This document shows, piece after piece, positions 1-9,678 of a stretch of DNA of 9,678 nt. The DNA is from a virus (taxonomy: Duplodnaviria > Heunggongvirae > Uroviricota > Caudoviricetes). The first letter of the stretch is position 1. Each line of letters begins with the position of its first letter. The notes beneath the pieces are model-generated. The model did not search any database. It worked only from the letters and a program-made list of their open reading frames with translations, and had not been told where the DNA came from. Position numbers and translations under genes: made by a program. The stretch is taken from the IMG/VR virus record IMGVR_UViG_2534682162_000003, positions 1 to 9,678 of that record; one strand, written 5' to 3'.

Positions 1-333
1 GCGAAAATCTGCACTCCGGGCGCGGATGGTGACAACATCCGGCGCGCCCCGGTGTTCAACCTCATCAACGGTAAATTTCCCTTTGCATACCAGGGCAAAA
101 CCTTTCCAGCCGATATACACCGTCAGGACAGCGCCACGAACCGGCAGCCCGACCTGCCCGTCGGCATCGTTCAGTTCAATATCAAGCTGGTCAGCCTCAA
201 AGCCCCGGTTATCCGTCAGGGTCATGCTCATCAGACGGTCGCTGATATTGCCGGTAATATCCCTGCTGTCGAGCATCAGCATGTAATCCGGCGTCAGCGT
301 ACTGCCTGCATCAAATGTCAGCGTATCCAGCAT
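1..333 (-). CDS. D: Tail/baseplate protein D (phage late control gene D family), N-terminal 111 codons only; gene continues past the window start
   Basis: Minus-strand frame is open from the ATG at 333..331 to position 1 (hand-translated: MLDTLTFDAGSTLTPDYMLMLDSRDITGNISDRLMSMTLTDNRGFEADQLDIELNDADGQVGLPVRGAVLTVYIGWKGF...). Its start overlaps the U stop as TAATG (331..335). Position after U matches the P2 order T-U-D. Family assignment is from memory of gpD-like N-termini, not a search. Confidence 0.75.
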   Translation of the reverse strand, partial: MLDTLTFDAGSTLTPDYMLMLDSRDITGNISDRLMSMTLTDNRGFEADQLDIELNDADGQVGLPVRGAVLTVYIGWKGFALVCKGKFTVDEVEHRGAPDVVTIRARSADFR

Positions 334-812
334 TATCCCGCCCCCGTCATACCCGTGAATTTAGTTGCCATACTGCCCGCCTTACCGATGAGCGATTCCG
401 CCTGTTTACCGATATCGCCATAAAGCGCGGCCAGTGATTCATCAACGCGGGTAAGTGACAGCGTAAAATCAATTTTCCGGGGTGTGCCGTCTGCAAAGAA
501 AATACTCCCTGTTTCACTCACCCTGCTGATGACATACATGCCGTAAATCATGCCTGTGCCATCCAGCAACGGCCACGCCCGGCCTTCCTCAGCCATCAGC
601 CTGAGCGTGGTCATCGTCAGCTTGCCGCCGGTCAGTTCGGGATAAAGCACACCGGCAAGCGTGATATTTTCCTCGCCAACACCGAGAAACTGGTAGGCAT
701 CCCGTTTACCGATACGGGAATTTGACGGCCAGCGATAATCTGATTCACGCTGCATGGTCTGGTGTGGCAGCGTCTGGCGCATAAAAACAAACATACCTAA
801 CGCGAGCATCAT
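333..812 (-). CDS. U: Tail protein U (P2 gpU-like)
   Basis: 159-aa ORF, the length I recall for P2 gpU. AGGAGG Shine-Dalgarno at 819..824 (minus strand), overlapping the end of T. Sits between T and D as in P2. Confidence 0.85.
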   Translation of the reverse strand: MMLALGMFVFMRQTLPHQTMQRESDYRWPSNSRIGKRDAYQFLGVGEENITLAGVLYPELTGGKLTMTTLRLMAEEGRAWPLLDGTGMIYGMYVISRVSETGSIFFADGTPRKIDFTLSLTRVDESLAALYGDIGKQAESLIGKAGSMATKFTGMTGAG

Positions 813-826
813 TTTTCGTCACCTCC

Positions 827-3274
827 TTAACCGTCATGCATCATGCTGGCACGGGCGCGCGCACGTTTATCCCGCTCGTATTTTTCGAGCGCATCCTGTA
901 ACTGGCGGTCGAGCTGAGTCCCCGGCGCAGTACCGCCCGTCAGACTGATGTGATATTCGTTTTTACTCTGGTCCACATAAGAGCGGCCAGCCGGTGCCGT
1001 AACCGGCTGATAAGCCTGATAGCCTGCATAAGAGCTGGTCGCCGGAATATAACCACCGGTGCCATACGTGGCGGCATGAGTTCTGGCGGCGGTCTGGTCA
1101 AGCGTGCCTGACTCTTTGTTGATAACACCGAGTTTTTCCAGTACCCAGTCAATACCGCTGCGCAGTTTGTTGAACGCATTAAGCGGCAGCATCAACGCGT
1201 CAGCCAGTGCCTGCCCGAACATGACGCCAGTATCACGGCAACGGTTCAGGGTGTCCTGGGTGGCTTTGACCGGGGCAATCAGGTTTTTAAACCACTGCCA
1301 CGCGGCCTGTAACTTTTCGCCCAGCCAGTCAAACACCGGCTTAAGTGGCGTGAACAGTTCCCCCACCGGCGCAAATGCCGCTTTCAGCCCTTCCATCACA
1401 CCGCCAAAGAATGCGCTGACAGGCTCCCAGTATTTACGGATAAGCAACGCCCCGGCGACAATGGCGGCCACCACGGCCACAACCGGCCAGCTAATCGCCC
1501 CGATGGCAGTCATAACAGCACTGCCAACCGTCGTGAAGATTGCCCCCATTGCGCCTGCTGCCACGATGATGGCATTGATGCCGGTGATAACCGGCCAGGC
1601 TACAAGACCAATGGCACCGATGATGCCAGTAAGCGCCAGCGCGCCACCGGCAATTAGGCCAATGGTTGACGCCAGTGATTTGTTTTTCTGGATCCAGCCG
1701 TCGAGTTTTAACACATACTTTGTGGCCGTCTGCGTGAGCTTACGCAGTGCGCCTTCCTGCTGGTCAAACAGGTCAGTCCCCACCGCTTCATAAGCGGACT
1801 GAAACTCCTTAAAGTCACCGCCGAGGTTGTCCTGCATGATTTTAACCAGCTCTTCCGTTTTACCGTCTGAGGCTTTCAGTGTGGCGGTCAGCTTATCCAG
1901 TTTTCCGCTTGCAGCCGCTGCCAGTAAAACGTTCGCTGATTTCAGGGCTTCCTCACCAAAAATGGTTTTAAGGTATTCCCCCTTCTGAGACGTTCCCAGC
2001 TTGTGTTTATCAAAGCTGGCCTGAATCTCTTTCAGAATGGTGAACAACGGACGCATATTTCCCTTTTTGTCCGAGGTTTTAACGCCAAGCTCTTTGAGTG
2101 CATCCCATGCTTTTCCAGTCGGTGCCTGTAATCGGGTGACAACGGCACTGCCACCCGTACCCGCCATTGACCCCCTGATGTTATTGTCATGCAGCACACC
2201 TGTCATGGCCGCTGCCTGTTCAAGACTTACACCTGCCGTCCTCGCAACCGGACCGAGGTAAGTCAGTGCATCACTGAGTCCCTGAAAATCAGCCGCCGAC
2301 TTATTCATCGTTGCCGACAACACGTCGCCCACATGGCTGACATCATCATTTGACAGTTGAAAGGATGCCTTAGTCCCCAGCAACAGTTGCGCGTTTTCTT
2401 CCATCGACCGCTGATTCGCCAGTGCCATATTCAGCGTGACCGGCGTTGCCGCCTGAATAGCCGCAGCATCTCCACCCGCTTTCGCAATGATAATCTGCGC
2501 ACCGGCCGCATCATCCGCTGAGGCGGCGGTATTGTCGCCGAGCTGGCGCGCCTGTTTGCGGAGCGCGGCCATTTCGGCGGAATCTTTTGCCACACCGAGC
2601 ACGGCCTGCAATTCTGAGTTTTTCTGCGCAAACTCATAACCGGGCATCAGCAGCTTAACTCCGGCCATCGTTCCCGCCGCCGCAATCCCCACACCGGCAG
2701 CGCCCACTGAGGCCATATTTCCGGCAAGTTCTTTTCCTGCCTGATAACGCTGTTTGACTGCGTTAAGTTTTGCCTGTTGTGCACTGACACGCGCCAGCGC
2801 GTCACGCTGCCGGTTAAGCTGTGCGGTGGTTTCACTGATACGGTTTTTCAGCCCCTGCTCATCATGTGCAAGATTGCGGGTATTAATTCCCACAGCGGCC
2901 AGTTCCCGCTGCTGGCGTTTAACGGAATCCGTCAGGCGGTTATATTTCGCCTGTAAGTCCTCCGCCGCACGCTTTGCGGATTCCAGCACTTTCGCCTGAG
3001 CACGGGTCGGACGTTCAGTGTTTTTAAACTGTGTGGCAAGTGCTTCGGCCTCCTGCCGTGCCTTTTCAAGTGCATGACCAGTCACGGCAAGCTGTGCACT
3101 GGTCTTGCGAAATCCCTCAATACGGGATGCGTGACCATTCAGCTCGCGCAGTGATTTTTGTGTTTCCCGGATATCCCCCGACAGCGACTTACTCGCTGTG
3201 CGGATGGATTTAAACGGGCGGGATGCCTGGTCAACAGCCCTGAGCAATACCTGTAATTTTACATTGTTACTCAT
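827..3274 (-). CDS. T: Tail tape measure protein (P2 gpT-like)
   Basis: 815-aa ORF. N-terminal region is charged and Ala/Gln/Arg-rich (coiled-coil character), followed by long Gly/Ala-rich hydrophobic segments (e.g. LTGIIGAIGLVAWPVITGINAIIVAAGAMGAIF...), typical of tape measure proteins. Located directly downstream of the E/E' chaperone pair. Confidence 0.9.
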   Translation of the reverse strand: MSNNVKLQVLLRAVDQASRPFKSIRTASKSLSGDIRETQKSLRELNGHASRIEGFRKTSAQLAVTGHALEKARQEAEALATQFKNTERPTRAQAKVLESAKRAAEDLQAKYNRLTDSVKRQQRELAAVGINTRNLAHDEQGLKNRISETTAQLNRQRDALARVSAQQAKLNAVKQRYQAGKELAGNMASVGAAGVGIAAAGTMAGVKLLMPGYEFAQKNSELQAVLGVAKDSAEMAALRKQARQLGDNTAASADDAAGAQIIIAKAGGDAAAIQAATPVTLNMALANQRSMEENAQLLLGTKASFQLSNDDVSHVGDVLSATMNKSAADFQGLSDALTYLGPVARTAGVSLEQAAAMTGVLHDNNIRGSMAGTGGSAVVTRLQAPTGKAWDALKELGVKTSDKKGNMRPLFTILKEIQASFDKHKLGTSQKGEYLKTIFGEEALKSANVLLAAAASGKLDKLTATLKASDGKTEELVKIMQDNLGGDFKEFQSAYEAVGTDLFDQQEGALRKLTQTATKYVLKLDGWIQKNKSLASTIGLIAGGALALTGIIGAIGLVAWPVITGINAIIVAAGAMGAIFTTVGSAVMTAIGAISWPVVAVVAAIVAGALLIRKYWEPVSAFFGGVMEGLKAAFAPVGELFTPLKPVFDWLGEKLQAAWQWFKNLIAPVKATQDTLNRCRDTGVMFGQALADALMLPLNAFNKLRSGIDWVLEKLGVINKESGTLDQTAARTHAATYGTGGYIPATSSYAGYQAYQPVTAPAGRSYVDQSKNEYHISLTGGTAPGTQLDRQLQDALEKYERDKRARARASMMHDG

Positions 3275-3694
3275 TCGTGTTTCCGCTTCGCTGGAGCGCC
3301 TTTTCGCGCCATGTGATGAGTTCGGTCAGGCTCATGGGATACAGTTCTGATGGCGGCCAGTGAAATATCACTGCCACATCCGCCATCAGGTCATCTACCG
3401 ACAGATTTTTCGGAAACGTCACTGCACCGAGTTCGGCGACAAAAAACCGACCACCTTACCGGCCAGTTCCACAAGGTCAGGCAGTTCCATCGCGGCGACT
3501 TCCTGCTCGGTCAGCATCGGTGCCGTCATGCGCGGCAGCACCTTAATAAGTGCATCGACTTCGGAGTGTGCGACCGAAGCCAGACTGACACCGCGAAGCG
3601 TCCCGGCATTAGGTTTCATCAGCGTGACCTGTTTGATAACCTGCTCACCACGTTTGACCGGATTTTCCAGGGTAATCACATTTTCTTTGTTCAT
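3267..3694 (-). CDS. E': Tail assembly chaperone E+E' fusion made by programmed -1 ribosomal frameshift
   Basis: Hand-translated: after a -1 slip on T TTT TTG, the frame stays open for 58 codons (VAELGAVTFPKNLSVDDLMADVAVIFHWPPSELYPMSLTELITWREKALQRSGNTNE) and ends at TAA 3269..3267, overlapping the T start codon (3274..3272). This is the P2 arrangement, analogous to lambda G/GT. Confidence 0.65.
3419..3694 (-). CDS. E: Tail assembly chaperone E (P2 gpE-like)
   Basis: 91-aa ORF between FII and T. Contains the T TTT TTG slippery heptamer near its 3' end. Confidence 0.85.
   Translation of the reverse strand: MNKENVITLENPVKRGEQVIKQVTLMKPNAGTLRGVSLASVAHSEVDALIKVLPRMTAPMLTEQEVAAMELPDLVELAGKVVGFLSPNSVQ
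3440..3446 (-). promoter_or_regulatory. -1 frameshift slippery heptamer T TTT TTG (minus strand)
   Basis: Plus strand 3440..3448 reads caaaaaacc, so the minus strand reads ggttttttg. In the E reading frame this gives GGT TTT TTG, the canonical X XXY YYZ layout. Confidence 0.65.
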
Positions 3695-3750
3695 GGTTTT
3701 CTCACTTCTGAATCAGGGTTAACCGGTCAGCCAGGCTGACCGGATGAAAA

Positions 3751-4269
3751 TCACAGGCCGATATTGCGGCGGTGTTGCTCCAGCCGGTCGACGCCGTTCA
3801 CCTTCTCAATCATGTTGATGGTGTCGATTTCGACCAGCTCCTTACCGTCCATCGTCAGCCGGAAATAGGTGCAGACCACGGAGATTTTCGACTCGGTGTC
3901 TTCTCCCTGTTTGCCCTCGCCGGTGTCGATTTCTTTCTGACGTCCACGCATGACCACCTCGACGGCCACCGTTTCGCCGGTATCGTCACGCTGGTAAGAG
4001 CCTGCAAAACGAATCGGTACGGCATCCACACCGGTTGCGGCGTAAAGCTCCCAGATAACCGAATCCGGGAAGCCCCCGAGCGACCACTCCATTGACAGCG
4101 CATCGTCATCAAGGCCGAGGTCTACCGGTGCGCTGCCGTTCATCCCCGCACCGCGATAGTTTTCGAGCTTACGGGTCAGTTTTGGTAGCGTGACGGACTT
4201 CGCGACGCCCTGATAGCTGTAGCCGTTCAGAAAGACGTTCATTAACTTGAGTTTGCGCGGCATTGCCAT
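3751..4269 (-). CDS. FII: Tail tube protein (P2 gpFII-like)
   Basis: 172-aa ORF immediately downstream of the sheath gene. AGGAG Shine-Dalgarno at 4273..4277 (minus strand), overlapping the FI stop. Confidence 0.9.
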   Translation of the reverse strand: MAMPRKLKLMNVFLNGYSYQGVAKSVTLPKLTRKLENYRGAGMNGSAPVDLGLDDDALSMEWSLGGFPDSVIWELYAATGVDAVPIRFAGSYQRDDTGETVAVEVVMRGRQKEIDTGEGKQGEDTESKISVVCTYFRLTMDGKELVEIDTINMIEKVNGVDRLEQHRRNIGL

Positions 4270-4281
4270 CGGTCAGGCTCC

Positions 4282-5472
4282 TTAATTGCTGTTAACCGAG
4301 GTGACCAGATTTGCCAGGTATTTATCGGTAATACGCTGGCGCAGGGTCAGGTTTTCAAGAGGAGGCACCGGTGTATAGTCGTAGTCGATATACAGTTTTC
4401 CGGCCTTGAGGGTTTCCGCATCGTTGGATTCTTCGCTGAACCAGCAGGTCGCATCCACGATATAGCCGTTTGTTTTCAGCTCACGGAATTTGGCATTGAT
4501 GCCGTCAACGATGTCGCGAATCAGCGTTGCGGTGATGGGCTTGTCCACCGCCCACATGTGCGCCTCAGCCATCGTGTCGGCCAGCACCTGCGCGGTGCGG
4601 GTGTAGTTTTCAAAGAGGAACAGCGGGTCATCAGAGCAGGTACGGTTACCCCAGAAGCGGAAACCGTCGCGGCGAATCAGCGTAGTGACGCCTGACTCGT
4701 TAAGCAGGTCAGCATCGGTGCCGGACTCCTGCAAGTCCCAGAATACAGATGCGCTGATGCCGGTAACACCGTTCACCCCGACATTGGACAGCGTTTTATG
4801 CCAGCCCTGCTCCTGGTCGATTTTGGCACGCAGCCCCAGTGCACGGGCGGTTGCATACGCGGTGGCGGTGGTACTGGTGACCGTATCCCATGCGAGGAAA
4901 TCCGGCCAGATGACCATCAGCTCACGCTGGCTGAAATTCTGGCGGTAAGCTTTCACCTCGGAAATGGTTTTACAGCCCCATGCGCTGATATACCCGAAAG
5001 CGCGCAACTTCTGACAGACTGATGCCAGTGCAACAGCCACCTCTTTGGTATCCAGCCCCGGCACACCGAGAATACGCGGTTTAACACCGGTTACCGACTC
5101 CGCCGCCAGCAGGGCTTTCAGTCCGGTGTACTGGCCGTTTTCGTCGGTGGTGCCGATGATATTGGAAACGGTCTGCGCGAGTTTCGTTTCTTCGTCGTCG
5201 CCGGTTCCGTCTTCCACGCGCACGACAACGGTGACCGGTTTTGACTGGTCAGCGATGGCCTGCAACGATGCCGCCAGCGTGCCTTTTTTACCGGCCTTTG
5301 CAATGGCGCTCTGCACATTGGTAATCAGCACAGGTTTATTGAGGGGGAAGGTTTCCGCATCCGCATCGCTGGCCGTGCAGACCATGCCGACAATGGCAGT
5401 GGATACGGTGGAAATGACGCGGGTGCCGTCGTTAATCTCCAGCACCTGCACGCCGTGATGATAGTCACTCAT
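4282..5472 (-). CDS. FI: Contractile tail sheath protein (P2 gpFI-like)
   Basis: 396-aa ORF, first gene of the FI-FII-E-T-U-D block. GGAG Shine-Dalgarno at 5480..5483 (minus strand). Confidence 0.9.
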   Translation of the reverse strand: MSDYHHGVQVLEINDGTRVISTVSTAIVGMVCTASDADAETFPLNKPVLITNVQSAIAKAGKKGTLAASLQAIADQSKPVTVVVRVEDGTGDDEETKLAQTVSNIIGTTDENGQYTGLKALLAAESVTGVKPRILGVPGLDTKEVAVALASVCQKLRAFGYISAWGCKTISEVKAYRQNFSQRELMVIWPDFLAWDTVTSTTATAYATARALGLRAKIDQEQGWHKTLSNVGVNGVTGISASVFWDLQESGTDADLLNESGVTTLIRRDGFRFWGNRTCSDDPLFLFENYTRTAQVLADTMAEAHMWAVDKPITATLIRDIVDGINAKFRELKTNGYIVDATCWFSEESNDAETLKAGKLYIDYDYTPVPPLENLTLRQRITDKYLANLVTSVNSN

Positions 5473-5561
5473 CCGTTTAACTCCGTGGTTAATGGGTGCA
5501 ACTATTTTCTGTTGTGCAGTGCATGAGACGCTATTTGACCTGACTGGTCAGTGGATGAAAC
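5473..5561 (-). promoter_or_regulatory. Probable late promoter region for the FI-FII-E-T-U-D operon (P_F equivalent)
   Basis: About 90 bp lies between the minus-strand terminator and the FI start, and by synteny with P2 this is where the activator-dependent late promoter should be. I found no clean TGT-N12-ACA dyad by eye; only a short CTGAC-tg-GTCAG dyad at 5540..5551. Confidence 0.3.
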
Positions 5562-5596
5562 AACAGATAAAGAAAAGGCGGGCAATTCGCCCGCCT
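5562..5596 (-). terminator. Rho-independent terminator on the minus strand
   Basis: 8-bp GC-rich stem (5576..5583 aggcgggc pairing with 5589..5596 gcccgcct) with a 5-nt loop. On the minus strand it is followed by TTTCTTTATCTG (5575..5564). Confidence 0.55.
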
Positions 5597-5625
5597 GTCC
5601 TGATTTGTACTCACTCATTTTCCGC

Positions 5626-5660
5626 CTGACAATTTACATAGCCCAAATGCTATCAAATCT
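5626..5660 (+). promoter_or_regulatory. Candidate sigma70-type promoter for the cargo gene
   Basis: -35-like cTGACA at 5626..5631 and an extended -10-like TGcTATCAA at 5648..5656, with a 19-bp spacer (longer than optimal). Identified by eye only. Confidence 0.25.
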
Positions 5661-5692
5661 GACAGTCTGCTTTGAGCGAAAAGCAGACTGTC
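5661..5692. repeat. Perfect 13-bp inverted repeat with 6-nt spacer (GACAGTCTGCTTT gagcga AAAGCAGACTGTC)
   Basis: Read directly from the sequence: 5661..5673 is the exact reverse complement of 5680..5692. Lies about 115 bp upstream of the cargo start and just downstream of the candidate promoter. Confidence 0.6.
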
Positions 5693-5808
5693 ACGCGTTG
5701 AAGTTAATTGTATTACTTAGATAAACACTATCATTTTCCTGACGTTAAGTTGTATCTTTGATAGGATTAAAAAACGTATAGATAGCTTATGCTACTGAGG
5801 GAATAAAA

Positions 5809-6618
5809 ATGACGAAAATTAGTGAACGATGGAAGCACAATGGCATTACTGAAGGTTATTGCAATATTTGTGGGAAATATGGCTTGCTCACAAAAGATCA
5901 TGTTCCTCCAAAGTGCGCCATAACCTTAGGCCCTGTTTTGCAGAAAACAGTTAGCGAATTTTTTGGTATTCAGGAACCAGTTAAACCATTAAATGCTAAA
6001 AATGGCTCTTATTTCAGAACCATTTGCAGCCACTGTAACAATAAGGTATTAGGTGGGCTCGATGTTGCAATTGAAAATGTAACAAAGTCCTTTAAAGAAC
6101 AGTTAAGTCGATATATGAATGGTATGAATGTATATCCATTCATTAGAATACCTTTTGATAGCATATCTTTCACTAAGGCTATGATTGGGCACGTGCTATC
6201 AGCAACTTCAGTTGAAGATTGTAAAAAAGAACCCGTAGATAGCCCCTTCTATACACCTTTAAAGGATTATGTTTTGGGTAAAAATTCAAGTTTTGAGGAA
6301 ACTCATGATATTTACTACTGGTTTTACCCACACAGAATGCACATATCCGCTCAAAGTGTAGCATTTATGAACGAAGGACATGTGGCATTTATTTGTGCTT
6401 TACATTTTTTCCCTATCGGTTTTATTATCACAATGAAAAATGAAGGAACATACCCTGCCCACTCTACAAAATTAGAACTTGAAGATAAATTCCTTACATT
6501 TAATATGACCTCTATAAATTATGAGTATACGACATTTCCATTTGTAAATCTTAAGGGAAACCAAATGTATGCGATAAGCAACGGTCATACTTGTGTGAGT
6601 TATCCAATAATTAAGTGA
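5809..6618 (+). CDS. Hypothetical protein with N-terminal HNH-like zinc-finger nuclease motif; candidate anti-phage defence/exclusion cargo
   Basis: 269-aa ORF with a GAGGGA Shine-Dalgarno 6 nt upstream of the ATG. The translation contains C18-x2-C21, D30-H31-V-P-P and C74-S-H-C77-N-N-K80, matching the CxxC...DHxxP...CxxCNxxK pattern of HNH/His-Me finger nucleases. The remaining ~190 aa are aromatic-rich with no motif I recognise. Confidence 0.75.
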   Translation: MTKISERWKHNGITEGYCNICGKYGLLTKDHVPPKCAITLGPVLQKTVSEFFGIQEPVKPLNAKNGSYFRTICSHCNNKVLGGLDVAIENVTKSFKEQLSRYMNGMNVYPFIRIPFDSISFTKAMIGHVLSATSVEDCKKEPVDSPFYTPLKDYVLGKNSSFEETHDIYYWFYPHRMHISAQSVAFMNEGHVAFICALHFFPIGFIITMKNEGTYPAHSTKLELEDKFLTFNMTSINYEYTTFPFVNLKGNQMYAISNGHTCVSYPIIK

Positions 6619-6672
6619 CGGCTAAATCATACAATCTACGCATGTTCACTTTCTACATATACCATCTATAAT

Positions 6673-6722
6673 GTCCGCTGTTGGCACAGAGCGGACTGTC
6701 AGATCAGGCTTTACTCTGTGCC
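6673..6722. repeat. Overlapping inverted repeats between the cargo stop and the G stop
   Basis: GTCCGCT (6673..6679) pairs with AGCGGAC (6690..6696); GGCACAGAG (6683..6691) pairs with CTCTGTGCC (6714..6722). Neither is followed by a clean U-tract on either strand. Confidence 0.4.
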
Positions 6723-6757
6723 ATAGATATGTAAGCTCACACCAGAGCTCATACAAC

Positions 6758-7285
6758 TTATTGCGGCATTTCCGGCCATTCGGGATTTGCAGGATCCACA
6801 CGACTGACCAGAACGCTGTAGCGTTCCCATCTTTCCAGTCTGCTACGCTCCTCCTCTGTTGCCATATTCAGCCTGACAGCGCGCTCCAGCGGCAAAATCA
6901 CGGATTCAGCATCTGCAAGAAGTCTGGCTTTCCTGTTTTCTGCCTGCTGTTGCAATTCCTCTGCCGTATAAATTCGTTTGATCACTGTGCCATCCTTAAA
7001 CATCCAGTTCCCTGAAATATCCGCCCGTCGGTTAGCAGTAATATCCGCCACTTCAACAACACTTAATCCATCCGGTCTGATAGCTGTCACATCCTTTTCC
7101 ACATAGCGGATGATATTATCTTTGTCGTACGCTATTTTTATCGTGTCATCAGCAAAATACTTTTGTTCTTCGTACCAGTTCTTACCATCTTCTGAAAAAA
7201 ACCAGACAACATCAAAGTCCTTTGTCAATTGATATTGTTCAACCGTTTTTGGATTACCCGCCGTAATATTTTTTAAATGCTGCAT
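6758..7285 (-). CDS. G: Tail fiber assembly chaperone (P2 gpG-like)
   Basis: 175-aa ORF starting 3 nt after the H stop. C-terminal half is GC-rich and conserved-looking; N-terminal half is AT-rich. Confidence 0.85.
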
Positions 7286-7288
7286 AAA

Positions 7289-9367
7289 TTATACCTGCGC
7301 CACGTTATACCATGTCCCGTTAATGTATTTCTGCACCGGTCTGTAATATACGCCACCAATGTTATCGGCAGAGTTTGAGCCGGTATCCTGAACAATAATG
7401 CCGGTATATACACACCCGGACGGTGCCTGATGTGTCCATGTCATGCCATTGTTCGCAGGTTTGTATGTGGCGGCACCACCAAGCCGGATATCCCGGACAT
7501 AGCGGGAGTCAAAATTGCTGAAATTTGATGGTATCACCTGCCCGGTAACCCGTAGTGCATCAGACTTAAGCGTCATCAGGTCTTTTGTTGTGCTGCCAGA
7601 CCTGATGCGCCATTTAAAATATTCATTGCCATTATCACCAGTTTCAAACCACATGTATGAGTCAGAATCAGCATCTGAATCATTTTTAAATCCAATTTTC
7701 GCCCAGTCAGTGTTTCTTTCCCAAATCAGGAAGGCATCATTGATAAATTTTATGCTGCCTGACATGCTTCCGCCTGATAATGCCAGAGCAAGAATATCCG
7801 CAGGTGTTGGCTTTCGTGATGTGGTATAAAACTCTGACCAGTCAGCCTCAAATCCATACCCATCACGTGCCGACCTGTAAAAAATCCCCCTGTTTTTATA
7901 ATCCACAAGAAACTGCATTGCCGGACAACTTCCCTCACCCGTGTAAAAATGCAGCACCATTTTTGATGCTCCGCCATCCTGTGCACAATAAGCACCACTG
8001 TCCCAGTTCCATCCTACCGCTTTATTATTTGCAACCGTATTTCCTGTTTTCCCTAATGCAAAAGCCGGTTGCTTATTTTTCGTATTGTAGTCGCGTCGCC
8101 AGCCCGGCGCATAATCAGCTCCGTGATTGATATACGTGAATTGCGCACTGGTGGTACCACCACCGCTTGATGTACTCGGAGTGGTCACACGAATGGTCAT
8201 TGCAGCTTTAACGCCCATAACCTCAATCACGCAACCTGCAAGATGAATAGTCCCACAGTCAGTATCGGTAATAATTTTGTTATTACCGTATGACCAGGAA
8301 CACTTGCACATCCAGTAGGGATGATTAAAGGCTCCCTGAGACTCTAGCCAGTCAATAAACTGAGCGGTTGTCCAGTTTCCGGCGTCAGTGCTCAAAGCAC
8401 CGCTATAAGCACGACAGGCACCGATATTTTTCGTGAAAGTATCCTTTCCCGGAATATCCGCACCGTTCTGATCTTTCTGAAGACGTTTTTCAGCATTGTC
8501 ATAGGCAGACTTCACCGCTTTTGGTGTTGCCGCAAGCGTTTCAGAATCGCTGTTGGTGGCGCTACTGAGCTGGACAAGACCTTTTCGCGCTGTGGTGGCA
8601 TCCTGTGCAGTGTATTTCCCGTTAGCAAGGTCATACGCTGTCTTAACCGCCTTTGGCGTTGCCGCAAGCGTTTCAGAATCGCTGTTGGTGACGCTACTTA
8701 GCTGGACAAGGCCTTTTCGCGCGGTGGTGGCGTCCTGTGCGGTATATTTCCCGTTAGCAAGGTCATACGCGGCCTTTACCGCTTTCGGCGTTGCGGCCAG
8801 TGTTTCAGACGTGCTGTTGGTCGCACTGCTTAACTGAGTAAAACCTTTTGCGGTCAGCGAGGCGTCCGGGTGACGTCGTGACTGTTCGTGCTCTGCAATT
8901 TTGTCATCAACGTAATCCTGCGTCGCCATCACCGTTGTGGTGTCAATGGTCAGCTCCACTGAGGCCACACTGCTGACGATGATGACCATACGGCAGGTCT
9001 GCGAACGCCCTGAGCCTTCGGCAAGGGCAGGCTTATAACTTTCGGCCATGTTCGCCACGGCAATTAACGTTCCCGCATCATCGTACAGGCCAAGCTCACG
9101 CATCCAGAAACCGCCCACCTCCGGCGGAATAACCAGCTCTGCGATAATATAATTACTGTTTCGTTTGTCCTGGCTGATTTTGTTCAGCGCATGTCGCCAG
9201 ACTTCGTGGATAAGCCCGGTCTGTCCGGCATCCGGGACAGGCAATTTACCACCGCCATCCCCGACGGCCATCGTGGTAATGTTGACCTTCCGCCCTCCCG
9301 GCGCGGTTGCCGCTGCCAGCTTTGCTGCACCGGCAGTGGTGATAACGGTTCTGAATTTTGTGCTCAT
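7289..9367 (-). CDS. H: Tail fiber protein (P2 gpH-like)
   Basis: 692-aa ORF. The N-terminus (MSTKFRTVITTAGAAKLAAATAPGG...) resembles what I recall of P2 gpH. Contains three tandem 44-aa repeats. The C-terminal ~350 aa are lower in GC and Cys/Trp/Tyr-rich, consistent with a receptor-binding domain. Confidence 0.9.
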   Translation of the reverse strand: MSTKFRTVITTAGAAKLAAATAPGGRKVNITTMAVGDGGGKLPVPDAGQTGLIHEVWRHALNKISQDKRNSNYIIAELVIPPEVGGFWMRELGLYDDAGTLIAVANMAESYKPALAEGSGRSQTCRMVIIVSSVASVELTIDTTTVMATQDYVDDKIAEHEQSRRHPDASLTAKGFTQLSSATNSTSETLAATPKAVKAAYDLANGKYTAQDATTARKGLVQLSSVTNSDSETLAATPKAVKTAYDLANGKYTAQDATTARKGLVQLSSATNSDSETLAATPKAVKSAYDNAEKRLQKDQNGADIPGKDTFTKNIGACRAYSGALSTDAGNWTTAQFIDWLESQGAFNHPYWMCKCSWSYGNNKIITDTDCGTIHLAGCVIEVMGVKAAMTIRVTTPSTSSGGGTTSAQFTYINHGADYAPGWRRDYNTKNKQPAFALGKTGNTVANNKAVGWNWDSGAYCAQDGGASKMVLHFYTGEGSCPAMQFLVDYKNRGIFYRSARDGYGFEADWSEFYTTSRKPTPADILALALSGGSMSGSIKFINDAFLIWERNTDWAKIGFKNDSDADSDSYMWFETGDNGNEYFKWRIRSGSTTKDLMTLKSDALRVTGQVIPSNFSNFDSRYVRDIRLGGAATYKPANNGMTWTHQAPSGCVYTGIIVQDTGSNSADNIGGVYYRPVQKYINGTWYNVAQV
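8490..8880. repeat. Tandem 132-bp repeats (three copies plus a partial) inside H
   Basis: Repeat units begin at about 8526, 8658 and 8790 (period 132 bp), with a degenerate partial copy near 8490. They encode the 44-aa repeat LSSxTNSxSETLAATPKAVKxAYDLANGKYTAQDATTARKG. Confidence 0.85.
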
Positions 9368-9377
9368 TATTCCTCAC

Positions 9378-9678
9378 TTATCCGGGGTAAACCGTAATTA
9401 CATCGCCGTCGTAAGCCACACCACCGGCGAACAGGTAGCCGGGAATGTCCCGGGTAATGTTCAGGCCAATAAGGTGGCGACTTGCAGGTTTGGCATCAGC
9501 AATCAGCCGTTCCATTTCCTGATACATTGCCTCTGTGATGCCGCTTTCCAGTACACCAATATCAAGCCTGAAGGTGCCTGGCGGGTCACTGTTTTCCCAC
9601 CACTCCGTCACGTTGATGAGATAGCCGAGCGGCTCCACCACACGCCGGATTGCGCCGATAGTGCCTTTATGACAGTGG
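9378..9678 (-). CDS. I: Baseplate assembly protein (P2 gpI-like), C-terminal part; gene continues past the window end
   Basis: Minus-strand frame is open from the window end (9678) to the stop at 9378..9380. The stop is followed by a GAGGA Shine-Dalgarno and the H start. Position upstream of H matches the P2 order I-H-G. Confidence 0.7.
   Translation of the reverse strand, partial: HCHKGTIGAIRRVVEPLGYLINVTEWWENSDPPGTFRLDIGVLESGITEAMYQEMERLIADAKPASRHLIGLNITRDIPGYLFAGGVAYDGDVITVYPG

Follow-up and report, generated by a model that had tools for sequence, protein, structure and literature searches.

The window analyzed here, a stretch of DNA 9,678 nt in length, originates from a P2-like prophage on a contig in assembly GCA_000190795.1. 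An exact match to the H protein led to this source, in which the window is the contig between two runs of N, whereas an exact 60-mer across the cargo/G junction had no match in the GTDB species representatives. Its ORF list gives the gene order I'-H-G-cargo-FI-FII-E-T-U, all on the minus strand. Judging from this order, the wider prophage context and a comparison with P2, H and G belong to the late operon V-W-J-I-H-G, with the FI-FII-E-T-U-D operon downstream of it, in an order colinear with P2. The backbone (1-5688 and 8640-9678) showed 93-98% identity to all the peduoviruses compared, whereas within 6900-8500 the nearest neighbours change segment by segment.

Gene H (7289..9367, minus strand) encodes a tail fibre protein of 692 aa, as identified from the ORF, the Pfam domains and the match to phage fiAA91-ss. 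It has the architecture of Peduovirus gpH, in which the collar/baseplate attachment domain Phage_tail_fib (PF12571; aa 1-151, E=1.3e-58) is followed by Phage_fiber_2 (PF03406) repeats, three in this case (E=1.1e-60); Pfam also detected gp37_C (aa 441-533) and Gp34_trimer (PF21446; aa 555-610), and the NCBIfam search of H and G returned nothing meaningful. The N-terminal baseplate-attachment (collar) part (8888..9367, minus strand, GC ~0.56) belongs to the conserved P2 backbone and is 96-100% identical in nucleotides to P2, Wphi, pro147, 12474III, P2_2H4 and YpM_46. Adjacent to it, the repeat search found three tandem 132-nt units (8492..8887, minus strand), which are the 44-aa Phage_fiber_2 repeats. 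The universal homology ends within these units, and the homology of most relatives begins at 8492 or 8640. Because both this end of homology and a change point in GC content (8504) fall in the 132-nt repeats, the repeats are likely a recombination joint. The H protein of P2DC1 has one additional unit and is 736 aa long.

H aa 300-527 (7787..8470, minus strand) form a domain of the Mu S'/P1 S' type, that is, of the alternative G(-)/C(-) fibre. It matched residues 187-416 of PDB 8JU3 with E=1.1e-122 and 393 bits (phmmer), and showed 80.5% identity to P1 Sv' (tblastn) and 72.4% to Mu Sv' (blastp). Although the earlier note recognized no motif in the C-terminal domain of H, the sequence in question (HPYWMCK...) is this Mu/P1 S' domain, for which 8JU3 is a crystal structure. 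Among peduoviruses the domain was found only in fiAA91-ss and P2DC1 (96-100%) and, partly, in 12474III and YpM_46. The following aa 528-612 (7532..7786, minus strand) are a Gp34_trimer-like segment that resembles residues 183-267 of Mu S according to phmmer and Pfam; it scored 112.7 bits against 5YVQ_A (phmmer) and is ~60% identical in nucleotides and 70% in amino acids to P2/Wphi. The distal tip consists of the last 73 aa (aa 620-692; 7292..7510, minus strand) and, from the identity comparisons, is inherited with G. Its aa identity is 95-100% in P2_2H4, P2_2H1, fiAA91-ss and P2DC1, as against 45-49% to P2-type phages and Mu/P1 S and 37% to S'. The tip also matched the C-terminus of Mu S (425-503) and the tip of the 9CUY short tail fibre (phmmer).

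Gene G (6758..7285, minus strand) starts 4 nt past the H stop, so that the chaperone gene lies directly downstream of the fibre gene. It encodes a tail fibre assembly protein (Tfa) of 175 aa, with Caudo_TAP (PF02413) at E=9.2e-34 and a full-length match of aa 1-175 to Mu U (PDB 5YVQ_B) at E=3.8e-83, and it shows the Tfa/Mu U-type organization of a variable fibre-binding N part and a conserved C-terminal domain. Codons 1-25 are conserved. Codons 26-135 (6881..7210, minus strand, GC 0.34-0.47) are allele-specific: to P2-type G their aa identity is 65-69%, with synonymous differences of 44-50%, versus 96-97% aa identity to window-type G. The C-terminal helices (codons 136-175 and the stop; 6758..6880, minus strand) form a flank conserved at the backbone level; they are 92-98% identical in amino acids to both allele types with 8-21% synonymous differences, and 84-95% identical in nucleotides to all peduoviruses compared. 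Identity in the H tip co-varied with identity in G codons 26-135 (Mantel r=0.90, p=2e-4) across 14 fibre/chaperone pairs, which are phylogenetically non-independent and represent only three classes. The earlier idea that a part of the chaperone is matched to the tip therefore held, but the variable part is codons 26-135 and not the N-terminal half. According to PMC9608196, which cites North 2019, Tfa proteins bind the tip of the fibre through their N-domain, while the C-domain is conserved and trimerises. By analogy with the 5YVQ complex in that description, G probably binds the C-terminal tip of H and would be needed for trimerisation.

Downstream of G, repeat and homology analysis revealed a hairpin (6673..6704), which is the right arm of an inverted repeat bracketing the cargo and the place where homology to all peduoviruses resumes. 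In P2 (NC_001895) the V operon is annotated with a rho-independent terminator located downstream of G, and the hairpin presumably corresponds to it.

The GC content of the backbone is 0.556 (1-5472 plus 8500-9678). In H it decreased from 0.560 in the 5' part (8900-9367) to 0.460 in the 3' part (7289-8300), in agreement with the drop from 55-60% to 45-47% described in the earlier note. G had a GC content of 0.392 in its 5' half (7000-7285), with 0.34-0.35 in the opening 40-55 codons, and of 0.508 in its 3' half (6758-6999), which bears out the ~37% and the recovery noted before. Binomial p values against the backbone were 1.2e-10 for H 3' and 3.4e-8 for G 5', and the minima among backbone windows of equal length were 0.538 and 0.472, none of them near the values of H 3' and G 5'. 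The maximum-likelihood change points were 8504 (H) and 6967 (G), and the low-GC span is therefore ~6900-8500; the dip at 7000-8400 first noticed is present (p=1.4e-15), but that span was slightly too narrow. GC3 was 0.59 at aa 1-290 versus 0.445 at aa 300-692 of H, and 0.389 at aa 1-95 versus 0.50 at aa 96-175 of G, the backbone having 0.58-0.72. GC1 and GC2 fall as well as GC3 (GC2 is 0.305 in G aa 1-95), and since codon positions 1 and 2 hold part of the dip, amino-acid composition contributes to it.

Composition alone does not prove transfer. The same GC profile was seen in nine peduoviruses, including P2, Wphi and pro147, whatever allele they carried, and in the Sv/Sv'/U/U' genes of Mu and P1, including the low-N/high-C step inside U. 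Because the profile is common to all the relatives and to Mu/P1, a swap cannot be dated or localised by GC; the drop, which had been read as the mark of a swap, is a property of an older shared gene pool and no sign of a recent swap in this genome. We found no recent acquisition specific to the window genome, the H allele occurring in 30-41 complete E. coli records and in a phage whose genome is published.

The published phage fiAA91-ss (NC_022750; Peduovirus) has the same gene order, an H of 692 aa with 99.7% aa identity and a G with 94%; its nucleotide identity is 97.6% over 6674-9678 and 94% in the backbone. Its cargo between G and FI is orf20 (1,107 nt), whereas the window has ORF269 instead. 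P2 (NC_001895) resembles the window in the N-terminal 240 aa of H (97% in nucleotides), the repeats, the G family and the GC profile, but its H is 48% identical overall and lacks the S'-type domain, and the identity is 47% in the tip and 66% in G codons 26-135. In the S'-U' pairs of Mu (gp52/gp51; PDB 8JU3, Mori et al. 2024) and P1, the S' variable domain is 72-80% identical to H aa 300-527, but the pairing of an S'-type tip with U' is absent in the window: the tip is only 37% identical to that of S', and the last 40 aa of G have 25-28% identity to U' versus 82% to U, the chaperone being of the U/G type. Unlike S', the window H carries the extra Mu S-like segment between the S'-like domain and the tip, and unlike the Mu/P1 S'-U' genes, H and G are not in an invertible segment. 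As for the Mu S-U pair (PDB 5YVQ, North et al. 2019), U aligns end to end with G, and S residues 183-267 and 425-503 align to H aa 528-612 and 609-692 with a tip identity of ~49%, while the central part of S (268-424) is missing from the window H.

The GC dip coincides with the homology breaks, which identifies the H/G region as a recombination mosaic with deviant composition, neighbours discordant with the backbone and sharp breakpoints. Neighbours switch exactly where GC changes, consistent with the earlier proposal that the host-range part of the fibre was horizontally exchanged. Neither result that would have spoken against this proposal was obtained, as the composition is not uniform across H and G and the neighbours of H 3' and G differ from those of the backbone. 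The same proposal had the C-terminal half of H and the N-terminal half of G swapped in recently as one low-GC unit. The whole of 6670-8849 is in common with fiAA91-ss and P2DC1 at 96-100% identity, and it is therefore one block for the window and these two phages. However, other relatives share different parts only: P2_2H1 and P2_2H4 have just 6672-7548 in common with the window (93-95%), and 12474III and YpM_46 just 7809/8089-8849 (86-88%). Moreover, in 5,426 E. coli genomes searched at a threshold of at least 95% identity, the S'-like part of H was present in about 41 complete records and the tip plus G block in 298, a ~7-fold gap which indicates that the two assort independently. One of these searches hit roughly 1,200 E. 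coli prophages in all. The S'-like part (7787-8470) and the tip plus G (6881-7510) thus differ in both neighbours and prevalence, and the GC profile is identical in all relatives and Mu/P1, so we consider a single, recently acquired cassette improbable.

Less probable still is that no transfer occurred and that the dip reflects only the amino-acid composition demanded by the fibre and chaperone folds. The declines in GC1 and GC2 would fit this explanation, as would the N-low/C-high step inside G/U in every homologue, Mu and P1 included, but GC3 drops as well, to values below those of the backbone, the neighbours are discordant with sharp breakpoints, and the unrelated phages P1 and Mu carry close relatives of the modules. 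The invertible segments Mu G and P1 C contain homologues of these modules, which might point to a programmed host-range switch like those of Mu/P1, the phages from which the modules would then derive, based either on inversion of a Gin/Cin-type segment or on some other diversity-generating system. The window, however, contains only one fibre/chaperone pair. A search allowing up to one mismatch found no AAACCNNGGTTT-type Gin/Cin crossover core in the window, the repeat search revealed no long inverted repeats on either side of H/G, and the window has no invertase ORF; an invertible segment, which would need gix/cix sites as well as an invertase, was therefore rejected, and we assign a switch of any kind a negligible probability.

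Very probably, the distal host-range part of H and the fibre-specific part of G were drawn from a shared lower-GC pool that is reshuffled by recombination. The pool would consist of lower-GC (~45-47%) fibre/chaperone modules common to P2-, Mu- and P1-like enterobacterial phages, with the upstream joint in the 132-nt fibre repeats and the downstream joint in the last 40 G codons and the terminator. The fibre of this prophage is a chimera in which the P2 baseplate-attachment end and three repeats are followed by the Mu/P1 S'-type domain, then a Mu S-type trimerisation-like segment and finally the 73-aa tip. If the Mu S-U complex is a guide, the N-terminal beta-sandwich of G may bind this tip and the conserved C-terminal helices may drive trimerisation.

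Host range in P2-like phages is set by a hypervariable region at the C-terminus of H (PMC5285337), and an engineered chimera of P2 and P1(S') proved functional with U' (PMC9942202). The fibre probably binds LPS core, with a specificity that would resemble that of fiAA91-ss and, in part, that of the Mu G(-)/P1 S' type. As a structural template for predicting receptor use, 8JU3 is available for the S'-like domain. It is conceivable, though doubtful, that the S'-type domain in series with a U-type-chaperoned tip provides two carbohydrate-binding sites and an extended range on a P2 chassis. In that case a Mu G(-)-like range (Shigella sonnei, E. coli C, Citrobacter) would be added to the tip's own specificity, and the choice of chaperone would follow the last 73 aa of H only.

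The low-GC stretch is real but ordinary, representing what is already known as the exchangeable outer part of the fibre and the fibre-binding part of its chaperone. That P2, Mu, P1 and lambdoid phages exchange distal fibre/chaperone modules in mosaic fashion has been a textbook fact since the early 1990s. The H/G genes of P2 are the reference case of tail-fibre mosaicism in common with Mu, P1 and lambda, reportedly described by Haggard-Ljungquist et al. (1992). The locus adds little new biology, the exact H allele being already in a published phage genome. It does display natural and evidently viable fusion points in the 8492-8887 repeats, at 7510/7548 and at ~6880, which could be useful in the design of tailocins or P2/P4 delivery particles, although the practical value is modest.

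The neighbouring cargo gene, ORF269, had no match in PADLOC, NCBIfam and Pfam searches, and with a GC content of 0.35 it is a stronger anomaly than the H/G dip. The lowest GC in the window was found at 5473-6757 (0.374; 0.351 in ORF269), and the 3' end of G stands out as a small island of higher GC with a low-GC tract on either side.

The differing relatives and prevalence of its parts indicate that the fibre region, comprising the tail fibre gene H (7289-9367, 692 aa) and the gene for its assembly chaperone G (6758-7285, 175 aa), is a mosaic in which three or more modules assort independently of one another. When 200-nt slices of the window were compared with nine peduoviruses, P1 and Mu, together with whole-locus BLAST, the C-terminal part of I and the N-terminal part of H (8700-9678) were 96-100% identical in nearly all peduoviruses. 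The domain resembling the alternative fibre S' (7800-8500) reached 96-100% only in fiAA91-ss and P2DC1, with P1 and Mu at 60-82% and identity falling off from 94 to 52% in 12474III and from 92 to 44% in YpM_46. A Mu S-like segment (7500-7800) was shared with fiAA91-ss and P2DC1 only, P2, Wphi, P1 and Mu being about 60% identical, and the H tip with most of G (6900-7500) was 88-100% identical in fiAA91-ss, P2DC1, P2_2H1 and P2_2H4 and 54-77% in P2-type phages. The last 40 codons of G and the downstream hairpin (6700-6900) were 84-95% identical in all, and the cargo (5689-6672) was found in pro147 only. Among 5,426 complete E. coli genomes, 7550-8450 was present at ≥95% identity in about 41 records and 6758-7510 in 298; none carried the whole window, the best coverage being 92%. 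The earlier note had proposed one horizontally exchanged low-GC cassette at 7000-8400; the relatives of the H C-terminus and G are discordant with the rest of the module, as it expected, but the modules differ from each other in nearest relatives and prevalence, and a single cassette does not describe them.

The GC figures of that note for H and G were borne out by per-segment computation: 0.560 in H 8900-9367, 0.460 in H 7289-8300, 0.392 in G 7000-7285 and 0.508 in G 6758-6999, beside 0.57 in FI and FII and 0.55 in T. Against the backbone GC of 0.556, binomial p was 1e-10 for the H 3' part, 3e-8 for the G 5' part and 1e-15 for 7000-8400, and no backbone window of equal length came near these values. 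Likelihood change points lay at 8504 and 6967, so the dip is real and slightly wider than proposed, about 6900-8500. All nine peduoviruses examined, P2 included, show the same profile regardless of H or G allele (the first 290 aa of H at about 0.55 and the remainder at about 0.46-0.49; G aa 1-95 at about 0.38-0.40 and the remainder at about 0.51-0.53), except that P2_2H1, with a divergent H N-terminus, has 0.50 over the first 290 aa. The Mu and P1 homologues repeat it (variable fibre parts Sv/Sv' 0.45-0.48, chaperone U N-part 0.38-0.41 and C-part 0.50-0.51; the regions sampled are about 0.47), and the dip therefore marks a long-standing fibre-gene pool shared by P2, Mu and P1. The GC step within G belongs to this gene family as such, its N-domain being rich in Lys/Asn/Asp/Ile and GC-poor at codon positions 1 and 2. 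An explanation of the dip by amino-acid composition alone was rejected, because third positions also lose GC (0.59 to 0.445 within H, 0.389 for G codons 1-95) and the nearest relatives disagree with those of the backbone. Composition alone gives neither a swap date nor the G breakpoint; discordant neighbours do. A programmed invertible switch of the fibre region was likewise rejected, since the window showed no crossover sites, no inverted repeats flanking H/G and no invertase.

H begins with a P2 collar domain (Pfam, aa 1-151), followed by three Phage_fiber_2 repeats of 44 aa, encoded by three tandem 132-nt units (8492-8887); matches to gp37_C and Gp34_trimer were weak. The homology break at 8492 and the GC change point at 8504 coincide within these repeats, which are likely to be a joint for homologous recombination. 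The earlier note saw no recognisable motif in the C-terminal domain, but a solved-structure search aligned aa 300-527 (7787-8470), containing HPYWMCKCSWSYGNNK..., with PDB 8JU3 residues 187-416 (E=1.1e-122), a structure said to come from Mori et al. in 2024. It is described as the alternative fibre S' (gp52) of Mu (PMC11821841), and identity over these residues is 80.5% to P1 Sv' and 72% to Mu Sv'. In the same search, aa 528-612 aligned with Mu S residues 183-267, and aa 609-692 with the Mu S C-terminus (425-503, PDB 5YVQ_A) and a short tail fibre tip (9CUY). Near-identical fibres differ in the number of 132-nt (44-aa) copies, three in the window and fiAA91-ss (692 aa) and four in P2DC1 (736 aa), which implies fibre-length variation by unequal recombination. 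P2_2H1 (919-aa H) has a tip and G block 98-99% like the window and a baseplate-proximal H N-terminus of about 80% nucleotide identity (to 8756-9678); the end of H that is taken to be constant also exists as alternative alleles.

G aligns to Mu U over all 175 residues (5YVQ_B, E=3.8e-83) and carries a Caudo_TAP domain (Pfam). Peduoviruses have two G alleles, one in the window, fiAA91-ss, P2DC1, P2_2H1 and P2_2H4 and the other in P2, Wphi, pro147, 12474III and YpM_46. Between them, codons 1-25 are 84-92% identical in amino acids (synonymous differences 17-36%), codons 26-135 65-69% (44-50% over codons 26-95), and codons 136-175 92-98% (8-21%, about the within-type level). This places the G breakpoint near codon 135 (about 6880) and makes the 3' end of G part of the shared flank; a part of G does vary with the tip, but it is codons 26-135 rather than the N-terminal half. 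Across 14 fibre/chaperone pairs (ten P2-like, and S/U and S'/U' of both Mu and P1), identity matrices of the last 73 fibre residues and G codons 26-135 were correlated (Mantel r=0.90, p=2e-4), the pairs being non-independent and in about three classes; for the last 40 G codons r was 0.57. This supports, short of proving, a link between the tip and codons 26-135. Despite the S'-type domain of H, the window tip shares only 37% of its residues with S', and the C-terminus of G 25-28% with U', suggesting that the chaperone goes with the tip, not with the S'-like domain. The co-variation fits the published Tfa model, in which an N-terminal beta-sandwich is reported to bind the distal fibre and conserved C-terminal helices to mediate trimerisation (PMC9608196, describing North et al. 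2019).

The closest known pair is H/G of fiAA91-ss (H 99.7% identical, G 94%). The sequencing of P2 H/G by Haggard-Ljungquist et al. in 1992 reportedly revealed horizontal exchange of tail-fibre and chaperone genes among P2, Mu, P1 and lambda, and the region is in line with this already known exchange. The N-terminal 150 aa of H would attach the trimeric fibre to the baseplate, and the repeats with the S'-like and S-like segments would form the shaft and distal domains. Residues encoded by 6881-7210 of G would bind the 73-aa tip while its C-terminal helices would nucleate trimerisation. By analogy with Mu fibres, the distal fibre would bind the LPS core. P1 and P2 fibres also bind the LPS core. 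Host range of the P2-like phage P88 is reported to be set by a 31-aa hypervariable stretch near the C-terminus (PMC5285337), which implicates the tip in specificity. Mu G(-) particles (S'/U') are described as infecting E. coli C, Shigella sonnei, Citrobacter, Enterobacter, Serratia and Erwinia (PMC4406740), and an engineered P2-P1(S') chimera with U' as retargeting P2/P4 particles to Shigella flexneri (PMC9942202). The present fibre is a naturally occurring counterpart of such a construct, its domains being candidates for receptor contact.

The large ORFs are colinear with phage P2 and all on the minus strand except the cargo: I, C-terminal part (9378-9641), H, G, FI (4282-5472), FII (3751-4269), E (3419-3694), T (827-3274) and U (333-812). 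Many Peduovirus members match 1-5688 and 8640-9678 at 93-98% identity. The window is the reverse complement of a contig that has an N-run on either side in scaffold GL871744.1 of GCA_000190795.1 (7690-17367 of the prophage locus taken from it); because scaffold gaps bound it exactly, the truncation of I and D at its ends comes from the assembly and not from decay of the genes. The contig lies within a complete P2-like prophage (capsid, lysis, baseplate and tail genes), so the fibre belongs to a prophage and not to an isolated tailocin fragment.

The cargo gene, ORF269 (269 aa, 5809-6618, plus strand), lies between G and FI, where P2 carries fun(Z); 5473-6757 has the lowest GC in the window (0.374; ORF269 0.351). 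It had no Pfam, PADLOC or NCBIfam match; phrog_21495 (unknown function) was its single match. On visual inspection the protein has an HNH-finger-like CxxC...DHxPP...CxxCNNK arrangement, and the pro147 annotation calls its homologue a metal-binding protein. A copy with ≥99% identity is present in 122 complete E. coli records (29 places on plasmids), in every case labelled hypothetical, and the gene could be a candidate for an anti-phage or lysogenic-conversion role. A 32-nt inverted repeat (81% complementary; arms 5657-5688 and 6673-6704) brackets the cargo, each arm being a hairpin adjoining ATCTGACAGTC / GACTGTCAGAT and sitting precisely where backbone homology stops and resumes. Six further peduoviruses have these arms, with ≤6 mismatches, on either side of unrelated cargos, arm starts being 1.17-1.95 kb apart there and 1.0 kb in the window; they could be terminators insulating the cargo, or cargo-exchange joints. 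GCA_043761665.1 encodes an H identical to that of the window with a different cargo (197 aa, 10832-11425 of its prophage locus, opposite strand), and cargo and fibre therefore assort independently.
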